Positions 12,374 to 46,611 of a stretch of DNA of 64,000 nucleotides are shown here, piece by piece. The translations under genes and the position numbers were made by a program. Positions within the stretch are counted from its first letter, which is position 1. The number at the start of each line of letters is the position of its first letter. The stretch lies in assembly GCF_006345805.1 (NCBI RefSeq), contig NC_043004.1:11966001-12030000 (forward strand), in the 5' to 3' direction. The DNA is from Octopus sinensis. Lineage: Eukaryota. The notes beneath the pieces are model-generated. The model was not told the origin of the DNA, made no database searches, and saw only the letters and a list, made by a program, of their open reading frames with translations.

Positions 12374-12528
12374 TGTGGTTGTGTGGTAAGTAGCTTGCTC
12401 ACCAACCACATGGTTCCGGGTTCAGTCCCACTGCGTGGCACCTTGGGCAAGTGTCTTCTACTATACCCTTGGGCCAACCAAAGCCTTGTGAGTGGATTTG
12501 GTAGACAGAAACAGTAAGAAGCCCATGG

Positions 12529-12568
<40 letters not shown>

Positions 12569-12782
12569 TATATGTATGTGTGTGTATATGTTTGTGTGTC
12601 TGTGTTTGTCATCCTGACATCGCTTGACAACCAATGCTGGTACCTTTACATCCCCATAACTTACAGACCAGTAGAATAAGTACTAGGTTTACAAAGAATA
12701 AGTCCTGGGGTCGATTTGCTCAACTAAAGGTGGTGCTCCACCATGGCCATAATCAAATGACTGAAGCAAATAAAAGAATAAA
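12374..12782 (+). mobile_element. SINE family A
   Basis: Family match with an expanded internal (TA)n. Confidence 0.85.
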
Positions 12783-13149
12783 AAAATATATCTAGAAGAA
12801 TAGGAATTCAAAGAATCAAAGAAACCTCACATTAATCTATTCACTGAGTGCGTGGCTATGCAAGAATGACTGAATGACTGTGGTTGAGGTTTAGGTAAAC
12901 CTTTACATTCTTCTGAAAATCCAAGAGTTACAATGGTGGAGAGAAGGTATATGAATAGAACAGATAAGAGAAATGTTAAAAATACATAGATATTACAGTT
13001 CTATATTTATGAGGAACTATGTACATTATTTACATTTGATGGATATTTGTCCTCATCTTGTTATACCCTACAGCCTTCATCAGGTGTCTTAGGGAAATTT
13101 CGAACCTGGGTTCTCATTCCTAAGGTATTTTTCAATGTTATTGTTGTCA

Positions 13150-13190
<41 letters not shown>

Positions 13191-13420
13191 GAGTGAGAGA
13201 GCAGTTCATGCCATCAAAGTGACACTGGGGTAAAATATACGAAGCCCAATATACCCATCATGACTACCCGTCTGATAAGGGTACACCAGGCACATGCATC
13301 ACAACCATATGTGCGCGACATGGTGATCTCATATCAAGATAAACAGCACATGACCTTGCAGGTGGGGCCCAGTTAGAATTTTCTTCAGGTTGAGTAGCCC
13401 ATCCCGCTCAAAAGGTCCCA
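13191..13420 (-). mobile_element. 3' end of a (TAA)n-tailed retroelement nested in an (ATT)n tract
   Basis: Matches the first 230 bp of 45900-46441. ATT repeats on both sides. Confidence 0.8.
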
Positions 13421-13596
13421 TTATTATTGTTATTATTACTGAGGTCACCGCCTGGAATCAAACTCGGAATCTTGGGGTTAGTAGCACCAAGATTCCGAGT
13501 TTGATTCCAGGCAGTGACCTCAATAATAATAATAATAATAATAACAACATGGAAAAATACCTTAAGAATGAGAACCCAGGTTCGAAATTTCCCCAA

Positions 13597-13634
13597 GGCA
13601 CCTGAAGAGGGTATGTCAACCGAAACGTTGTGTT
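13597..13634 (+). ncRNA. Minimal type I hammerhead ribozyme motif (stem II damaged)
   Basis: Stem I ggcac/gtgtt, CTGAAGA at 13602-13608, GAAA at 13622-13625, palindromic stem III aacgtt, GUU triplet. Confidence 0.65.
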
Positions 13635-13694
13635 AACAACAAACAAATGAGAACAAATATCTGTCAAATGTAAATAATGTAAATAATAGATATA

Positions 13695-14710: not shown

Positions 14711-14910
14711 TCACCAAAGCATTCTGACTACAGCACATATGTGCAGCAAGCTCGCAGATTGTGACCCAACTGTCCATGCAAATCATTTTGTCCACTCACT
14801 GGTGATTTGTATGAGTGGTTGTAATTGATGGTTTCCCCCCATTCATCTTCAACACTCTTTCCTCCTCTTCAAACGTCCTGCAGTGCCATCTCTGTCGACA
14901 GCCCTTTTAA

Positions 14911-15149
14911 TCTTTTACTCTTTTACTTGTTTCAATCATTTGACTGTGGTCATGCTGGAGCACCGCCTTTTACTCGAGCAAATCGACCCCAGGACTTATT
15001 CTTTGTAAAGCCTAGTACTTAATCTATTGGTCTCTTTCACCAAACCGCTAAGTTACGGGGACACAAACATACCAGCATCCGTTGTCAAGCGATGTTGGAG
15101 GGGGGGTTGCAAACACAGACACACTAACATATACACACACACACACACT

Positions 15150-15182
<33 letters not shown>

Positions 15183-15368
15183 ACACACACACACACACAT
15201 ATATATACAAATATACGATGGGCTTCTTTCAGTTTCTGTCTATCAAAATCCACTCACAAGGCTTTGGTCGGCCCGATGCTATAGTAGAAGACACTTGCTC
15301 AAGGTGACTGAACCCGGAACCATGTGGTTGGGAAGCAAGCTACTTACCACACATCCACTCCTACGCCT
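14911..15368 (-). mobile_element. SINE family A
   Basis: Reverse-complement family match with expanded (CA)n. Confidence 0.88.
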
Positions 15369-45283: not shown

Positions 45284-45899
45284 AGAAACATGGAAGATGG
45301 ATGATGATGATAATGATTTCTCTGTCTCTTTTCTGCTTTTCTAAGACAATACCTCTTTCCCCACCTGCTTGCTCTTCAGCTTTGTCCTCTCTCCTTGTGT
45401 TTTTCTGTTGACACTCCAATTCTATAACATTAATTTCTCTGAAGCAAGAATATTACCTGTACAAACAACTAAACCCACCAGAAACAGTAGCCTGGTCTCC
45501 CTTAAAATCACATCCCGATGTCATTTTCTTTCTGTGTATTTCAAAAAATAAATAAATAAATATGGGTGTTGAATACCAATAATATACCTGAAGACACATC
45601 TGCAAAATTGATGGGAGGGTCACAGTTGGAATGCCTTTGATAAAAAAACTACTAGGAGTTGACCTAGCATGTAAGAAGCAGAAGCAACAACTAAGTCACC
45701 ACAGCAGTATTTTATACATCACTACATTCCCAGTTCAACTTCTGCCGAGGTCAACTGTGCTTTCATCCTTTCAGGGTCAGTAAAACAAGTACCAGTTGAA
45801 CTCTCCCCCAATATTGCTGCCCTTGTGCCAAAATTTGAAACTATTACTATTATTATCATTATTATCATTATTATTATTATTATTATTATAATTATTATT

Positions 45900-46441
45900 G
45901 AGTGAGAGAGCAGTGCATGCCATCAAAGTGACACTGGGCTACAAATATACGAAGCCCAGTATACCCGTCATGACTACCCGTCTGATAAGGGTACACTAGG
46001 CACATGCATCACAACCATATGTACGCGACATGATGATCTCATATCAAGATAAACAGCATATGACCTTGCAAGTGGGACCAGTTAGAATTTTCTTCAGGTC
46101 GAGTAACCCATCCCGCACAAAAGGTCTCTGAGTAAAGGTTGTTTAAGGATGTTGAATGAAACACCTATGTTTCCAAAGGTGAATTATCCAAACCTCCAAG
46201 AATCCCTCTTGACAAACAGCTATGATACTCTCTGACTACTTCTGCTCGTGATCAGACTGCACATATCGTCAGCCACTAAGGAACATGCTCAACTGGTTAA
46301 GGTCAAACAACTGACAAGCAAATCTGTGGTATTGAGCAGAATATTTGCTGTAGCCCATCTTTTATACCAAGACAAAACAATGTACATGATAACACTTCCA
46401 ATCAGTTAAGATCAGAAGCCACAAAAGCCACTGCCTGGTAC
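45900..46441 (-). mobile_element. 3' region of a (TAA)n-tailed retroelement
   Basis: Longer homologue of 13191-13420, embedded in ATT repeats that interrupt a family C SINE relic. Confidence 0.75.
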
Positions 46442-46611
46442 TACTTCTATTATTATCATTATTATTAGTATTATTATTTAGCATCCTTCCGAGTCCCAGT
46501 GAAACATTGGGGTCAATGCAATCAACTTGTCTCCTCCGCAAAATTTCAGGCCTTGTGCCTATTGTAGAAAGGATTATTATTATTATTACTATTATTATTA
46601 TTATTGTTAAT

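Follow-up and report, generated by a model that had tools for sequence, protein, structure and literature searches.

What sort of element folds back on itself at 12995-13687 of the window (the whole 64,000-nt stretch of Octopus sinensis DNA analyzed here), and by what route did it arise? A sequence-only reading of this locus had proposed a tRNA-headed, Pol III-transcribed, ribozyme-processed SINE-like family mobilized by Penelope machinery. The results described below indicate that the fold-back is almost certainly a pair of decayed, 5'-truncated, head-to-head pLTR copies of an abundant Penelope/Poseidon-type retrotransposon.

Anatomy of the fold-back

The central stem was found where it had been described, with 13440-13475 pairing with 13487-13522 (36 bp, one mismatch) around an 11-nt loop at 13476-13486; the outer arms, 13074-13163 and 13522-13611, are 88% complementary, and the folding energy of -85.6 kcal/mol (z = -19) was equalled by none of 200 shuffles. 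Both arms contain a B-box variant, an (AAT)n tract and half of a hammerhead, as had been claimed. The earlier span of 13009-13684, however, had to be extended to 12995-13687, owing to the optional tail on the left arm, and the 230-bp unrelated repeat at 13191-13420 that interrupts this arm was absent from the earlier description.

The left arm lies on the minus strand. Its outer portion, 12995..13136, is the pLTR 3' part (that is, the 5' end of the ORF) with the start-codon region, the hammerhead 5' half and the long type of end; it retains a 34-nt tail, and its alignment to the family 3' part covers positions 1-183, with deletions of 27, 9, and 5 nt. The stem I 5' strand and the CUGAUGA core of its hammerhead occupy 13077..13088, while GAAACGUU and the stem I 3' strand are deleted, the gap falling between 13062 and 13063. 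Further inward are the outer part of the (AAT)n tract (13137..13190), the younger, 5'-truncated repeat that is foreign to the element (13191..13420, also on the minus strand), the inner part of (AAT)n (13421..13439), and a tRNA-derived head fragment (13442..13485, head positions 31-74) with its B box at 13454-13465 and its A box lost. On the plus strand, the right arm consists of a second head fragment (13487..13520, positions about 40-74; B box 13497-13508, A box lost), (AAT)n (13522..13548), and a pLTR 3' part (13549..13687) with an ATG at 13568 and the short, tailless type of end, aligning to positions 1-148. The right-arm hammerhead (13597..13634) comprises stem I (13597-13601), the CUGAAG core (the N7 = A variant), GAAACGUU (13622-13629), and the stem I 3' strand (13630-13634), with an 8-nt deletion in stem II. 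A likely target-site duplication, recognized by alignment and a family-wide flank test, has its left copy, ATAGATAT, at 12986..12993 and its right copy at 13686-13693, where it overlaps the element end by 2 nt.

The sites of the lesions had been read correctly: the left arm lacks 27 nt including GAAACGTT, and the right arm lacks 8 nt of stem II. Their interpretation as complementary lesions did not survive, as the two half-ribozymes lie on opposite strands and no single transcript holds both. Since the hammerhead is complete in a 184-copy family consensus, these deletions represent ordinary decay. The head of each arm is cut internally, and neither retains an A box; with both A boxes and both ribozymes lost, the window copy is, to judge from its sequence, dead.

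Several other features of this region deserve mention. Two departures from the consensus, a C>T in the B box and a G>C at the end of the head, are common to both arms of the stem (13441-13521), and N7 differs between the outer arms, a pattern that hints at conversion within the hairpin or at a shared template. The element is flanked by two inverted copies of another SINE-like repeat (12375-12790 and 14908-15358, 2.1-2.9 kb apart), and several further tRNA-like heads are found elsewhere in the window; the flanking SINEs are putatively octopus-like. The younger repeat, roughly 500 bp long and 95-99% identical among copies, has repeatedly inserted into the (AAT)n microsatellite of the element (window 13191-13420 and 45897-46450; L093:545-1070, L022, L016, L100, and L244). 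No reading frame was seen in the copy that was translated and no Rfam ribozyme at the 5' end; going by its target preference, it is possibly a non-autonomous Dong/R4-type element.

The parent retrotransposon

When the 2.72-Gb genome was searched with the right arm, 40 of 3,349 candidates were scored, and thirty loci shared one common unit, in which a head of 75 nt is followed by (AAT)n and a 3' part of 183 nt. At one locus, RT-coding sequence was found upstream of the unit and served as the next query (1,961 candidates, 150 scored, 30 loci fetched). In 20 of the 30 fetched loci the unit follows the RT match in the sense orientation after ~850 bp, and it is often also present upstream in inverted form. 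The check proposed earlier, identity of the arm to the pLTR of an autonomous Penelope element, thus came out positive, the unit sitting in sense at a fixed distance downstream in 20 of 30 RT loci, and the suggested link to Penelope machinery was borne out: the arm is the terminal part of a Penelope-type element that codes for an RT. One locus, L097, carries a complete pLTR-ORF-pLTR copy.

Each unit opens with the tRNA head and (AAT)n; the ATG comes next and is followed by the hammerhead motif and an optional 34-nt tail, after which the remainder of the ORF leads to the stop codon and, 29 nt further on, to the next tRNA head. The ORF consensus (depth 25-55) encodes ~845 aa with an RT and a GIY-YIG-like end and contains one 1-nt slip. 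Its reading frame opens at the ATG upstream of the hammerhead, and the peptide encoded across the hammerhead recurs in the homolog P0003 (60% to the consensus frame); a start codon within the tail was rejected on the basis of this frame and the P0003 peptide. The homologs are PLE proteins, with the closest ones at 54-68% and the closest to the consensus frame at 74%; 1,583 homologs have PF00078/PF26215/PF28514. RVT_1 was matched on three copies of the family and missed on L091, and the family profile matches TERT weakly. Pfam GIY-YIG was recognized in 4 of 35 homologs and not in the family's own frames, and the profile gave an E value of 0.08 against T4 endonuclease II; a putative CCHH motif of GIY-YIG is discernible in the family translation. 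In a quick tree that had no named Poseidon reference, the family stands apart from the other PLE families of the genome (~27% identical), and its tentative label as Poseidon rather than Neptune rests on architecture.

The junction between the ORF end and the head has 834 exact matches and is bridged by contigs from runs labelled organisms C and D. There are 5,689 exact matches to the 22-nt hammerhead motif, a number that, given ~6% divergence, leads to an estimate of roughly 2 x 10^4 arms. No relative of the family was found in viral contigs. PLE sequences within prokaryotic MAG contigs (L331-L350) are most likely host contamination. Other PLE families of the genome (L141-L148, e.g., G000:C1:207473583-207479846) have intact frames of 762-883 aa and are presumably Neptune-like, judging by a Cys-rich linker; at least five copies share a 781-aa frame. 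These families are probably either young or active to this day. In ORF copies of the present family, substitutions away from the consensus are more often A>G (2.3%) than T>C (1.7%) on the sense strand, a bias for which RT error or A-to-I editing of the template RNA could be responsible.

The head consensus, built from 23 copies, is collinear with host tRNAs and fits best, among the six isotypes compared, to tRNA-Arg(TCT) (z = 8.6 versus shuffles). Its A box (position 8) and B box (position 51) are intact and spaced as in tRNAs, so the tRNA head claimed earlier is real at the level of the family consensus. A profile of 27 host tRNAs matched 6 heads in 20 element loci (E values from 6e-4 to 0.04). 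Neither a tRNA nor a hammerhead was detected by ARAGORN or Rfam in the window or in better copies, and both calls rest on our own alignments. Among 100 other PLE loci (400 kb), no such head was found, the one tRNA-like match being antisense and away from the pLTR. Upstream of the head in the family junction (L107:5019-5044; -16 to +9), the bases repeat the start of the head in imperfect inverted form, perhaps as a relic of the fold-back joining event that captured the head.

The 184-copy consensus also has all the features of a minimal type I hammerhead as set out in the available text of Cervera and de la Pena 2014 (PMC4209133): CUGANGA, the extra base before stem II, G10.1-C11.1, and GAAA, along with palindromic 15.2-16.2, UH, and a short stem I. 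The minimal type I assignment made from the decayed window copy therefore stands, the motif being intact in the family. Its only common non-CpG variant is at the free position N7 (U/A). Stems I and II appear in the predicted fold; the hammerhead dimer as drawn (-20.7) falls short of the stability of the predicted minimum (-29.2). The family ribozyme is putatively active. The description of the copies as ribozyme-processed was not supported: they end off the cleavage site, and fragmented RNA-seq, in itself uninformative on cleavage, has no RNA end there.

Head-to-head doublets and the 5' boundary

Among 59 loci, 30 have a head-to-head partner, none a tail-to-tail partner, and 5 a same-strand neighbor, so that of the expected inverted or tandem arrangements only inversion proved frequent. 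The 31 pairs include 25 with one long and one short end, 4 with a truncated arm, 1 long+long, and 1 short+short, making 25 long+short among the 27 scorable pairs. In the long+long pair one arm runs on into the ORF, and the short+short pair is that of the window, whose left arm does carry the tail. The two kinds of end map to ORF nt ~130 and ~164. Flank words of at least 7 nt are common to 14 of 27 pairs versus 2.1% of 702 cross pairs, which indicates that each doublet arose in a single insertion event that duplicated its target. Arm-to-arm concordance at N7 (the variant in both arms in 6 cases, in one arm in 5, and in none in 25) is compatible with either one or two template molecules.

Inverted arms with flanking duplications are also what would be expected of a TIR MITE or a fold-back DNA transposon with long terminal inverted repeats. 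Such an origin has next to no probability, because the outer ends are unequal and fixed and the inner ends are variable, 29 of the 59 loci have no head-to-head partner, and the arm forms the terminus of an element that encodes an RT; it is refuted by the RT-linked units, the L097 copy, and the classification of arm ends. The Penelope-type origin finds a biochemical counterpart in PAc, for which the available text of Frangieh et al. (PMC11167929) describes extension of both nicked strands in vitro and two internal start sites that bound the tail, and reports hammerhead cleavage to be dispensable. For the octopus family, we infer that each DNA end primes one cDNA, with one start site per end, and that the two cDNAs become joined at their far ends, often via the palindrome at +1; exact palindromic junctions number 328.

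The 5' ends of the copies form a wall at tRNA position +1. Exact-motif counts, made with motifs unequal in length and mutability, were 739 at -121 to -102, 834 at -23 to -4, 3,638 at +2 to +23, and 4,938 at +30 to +49, with reversed controls giving 0. Of 62 head fragments, 48 extend to position 13 or lower, but only 3 of the 48 run on into the ORF. About half of those fragments join the flank or a partner that is cut elsewhere, so the wall is not due to palindrome pairing only. Full-length copies L097, L320, and L322 begin at +1 to +4 (L097 at +1), and L313 and L328 begin inside the previous ORF. In the set of 27 loci chosen by the 5' part of the ORF, four have retained a sense head upstream, two of them starting at +1/+4 and two in the previous ORF. 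Both fresh 5' ends and longer templates must therefore have existed. A hairpin predicted across +1 in ORF-linked RNA (-17 kcal/mol over 70 nt) could itself be a cause of truncation.

Transcription, life cycle, and relation to known elements

The sense strand of the 2,645-nt unit (consensus depth 25-55) contains no run of four T residues (T4), as compared to 30 A4 runs and a shuffle mean of 4.6 T4 (P = 0.009), an absence that represents one master sequence and loses strength under stricter nulls (P = 0.07 with dinucleotide shuffles and 0.15 with permutation of the element's own codons). Windows with 4 T in 5 positions number 4 versus 13.8 expected from mononucleotide and 9.5 from dinucleotide shuffles (P = 0.008 for the latter), and individual family copies have 38 T4 in 98.9 kb. 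By comparison, four intact frames of other PLE families with the same base make-up in the same genome, which have no head after the stop, contain 9-10 T4 each, about twice the expected number; six long frames of such families have 8-13. In 71 metagenome PLE stretches the median is 4.2 T4 per kb. Unrelated PLE stretches with zero T4 in the matched part do occur (3 of 71 and 2 of 15); the 3 that were checked have T4 elsewhere and the 3 inspected lack a head, so the trait did not generalize. Phe is encoded by 12 TTC and 3 TTT codons in the family, with no such skew for Asp, Asn, and Cys, and Phe content across homologs follows no trend. A TATA-like word at -36 to -30 overlies the stop codon, a weak signal in AT-rich DNA. 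RNA reads from 3 runs under another organism label, covering two ORF-end/pLTR stretches, were equal on both strands and marked no start or end; most continue into unrelated sequence and are uninformative on Pol III or on cleavage.

Use of the Pol III promoter in the pLTR appears likely on the strength of these sequence features. Only slightly less confidence attaches to a cycle in which the arms are pLTRs of an autonomous Penelope-type element that is probably transcribed as a whole by Pol III, reverse-transcribed from internal start sites, and primed on both DNA ends. Pol III would initiate at about -6 to -2 of the head and, meeting no T4 terminator over 2.6 kb, would traverse the ORF and enter the next unit. 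At an AT-rich target, the protein would make nicks about 7-13 nt apart in the two strands, and reverse transcription would begin at ORF nt ~130 and ~164, one site per DNA end. Because these sites are only ~300 nt from the RNA 5' end, most cDNAs would run off at tRNA +1, yielding solo pLTRs, and two cDNAs would join head-to-head, often via the palindrome there. Full-length copies would require a longer template, tandem or circular. The hammerhead is predicted to need dimerization within tandem RNA for its activity, and insertion probably does not depend on it. Uncapped RNA might be translated through an A-rich unstructured leader or as a ligated circle, or the protein might come from Pol II read-through.

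Alternatively, the same doublet could belong to an ordinary Pol II-driven Penelope in which the tRNA fragment is a fossil insertion. A Pol II promoter is reported in the Penelope pLTR of D. virilis, and T4 absence is not significant against permutation of the element's own codons (P = 0.15). The hairpin at the junction and the 328 exact palindromic junctions would then account for the wall by RT stalling or cDNA annealing, and the lack of T4 would reflect chance or A-rich codon bias. In addition, Kojima 2024 (PMC10886601, available text) holds that autonomous partners must use Pol II, Pol III being weakly processive. We regard this combined explanation as unlikely, though not negligible: many arms stop at -6 to +5 without a palindromic partner, at the loop of the hairpin rather than its 3' foot; the A and B boxes remain intact, with the spacing of a tRNA (8 and 51); T4 runs are about twice as frequent as expected in equally A-rich PLE families of this genome; and the skew in Phe codons (12 TTC, 3 TTT) is not seen in Asp, Asn, and Cys.

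It is also conceivable that the solo pLTRs form a self-propagating SINE-like family, the short unit being transcribed by Pol III and served in trans by the Penelope protein, with the ORF transcribed otherwise. For every ORF-linked copy there are about 4-7 solo copies, the solo copies start at +1, A127G is commoner in them (24 of 108 versus 4 of 61, P = 0.01, in a partly biased sample), and Sm-alpha offers a precedent as described in the literature at hand. Nonetheless, solo (118) and ORF-linked (66) copies have no fixed difference and are similar in age (mismatch 5.1% versus 5.9%), the absence of T4 extends beyond the short unit over the ORF, and solo copies end at the RT start sites. The PAc template requires the ORF beyond these sites, to +172 (PMC11167929, available text), so solo transcripts should be poor templates, and this scenario is quite improbable. 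The separate, non-autonomous SINE-like family proposed earlier thus gives way to the autonomous element's own pLTR, with alleles and age shared between solo and ORF-linked copies: the element functions like a SINE at its 5' end without being a separate non-autonomous family.

Returning to the proposed Pol III-transcribed autonomous element, several known systems share parts of its design; R2 retrotransposon RNA, for one, is made without Pol II. As far as the available parts of the cited papers go, R2 resembles the octopus element in having retroelement RNA with a self-cleaving ribozyme (PMC6765202) and differs in that the ribozyme is HDV-like and the element rDNA-specific and co-transcribed from the host locus, not by Pol III. 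Within the same scope, PAc of Anolis carolinensis (PMC11167929) has a single RT plus C-terminal GIY-YIG ORF overlapping the pLTR hammerhead, an optional tail of 30-40 nt, tandem and inverted 5'-truncated copies, AT-rich targets, and ends off the ribozyme cut; unlike in PAc, the octopus pLTR starts with a tRNA-derived A/B-box head and (AAT)n, its copies pile up at +1, and its sense strand lacks T4. Schistosoma Sm-alpha and Sj-alpha (PMC6765202, PMC2770079), present in tens of thousands of copies, likewise combine a Pol III promoter, reported to be tRNA-related, with a following type I hammerhead. They are described there as non-autonomous and tandem, with a ribozyme shown to be active and no autonomous parent named, whereas the octopus unit is the end-repeat of an autonomous element, solo or head-to-head. 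Non-LTR retrozymes (bioRxiv 10.64898/2026.07.22.740005) are pLTR-derived, hammerhead-bearing non-coding repeats tied to PLEs, but are defined as tandem repeats, an arrangement approached by only 5 same-strand neighbors in 59 octopus loci; tRNA and Pol III go unmentioned in that preprint's available text. Cassandra, Helenus, and Ajax (TRIMp3; PMC10886601) similarly carry a small-RNA-derived Pol III promoter inside the terminal repeat, but they are short non-autonomous LTR elements of 311-1,263 bp whose autonomous partners are expected to use Pol II, as opposed to a Penelope-type element of 2.6 kb that encodes a protein. The literature consulted, which included two cephalopod repeat papers and Craig et al., describes in its available text no autonomous PLE headed by a tRNA; the family may be catalogued under another label.

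The precedents, Sm-alpha, retrozymes, and Cassandra/Helenus, are all non-autonomous, and Pol III promoters are thought, according to the available text of PMC10886601, to be restricted to short non-autonomous elements. Whether the whole autonomous octopus element is Pol III-transcribed and translated from such RNA is evenly poised on present sequence data. The same even chance holds for the fuller proposal that a tRNA promoter was captured, the element came to be transcribed by Pol III from end to end, its 2.5-kb ORF was purged of terminators, the uncapped or ribozyme-circularized RNA is translated, and solo repeats are the main product. If true, adaptation of such an autonomous element to Pol III would run counter to the rule on short non-autonomous elements and would provide a natural long Pol III mRNA with its attendant problem of cap-independent translation. 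The thousands of long+short doublets flanked by target-site duplications lend genomic support to dual priming, a step unvalidated in the available text of the PAc study, and the arms, estimated to be on the order of 10^4, would fold into long hairpins in host transcripts that run across them. The element offers a parent type for schistosome-like tRNA-hammerhead SINEs, and solo repeats as its main product would, if confirmed, mark a direct route from Penelope elements to SINEs of the Sm-alpha kind.
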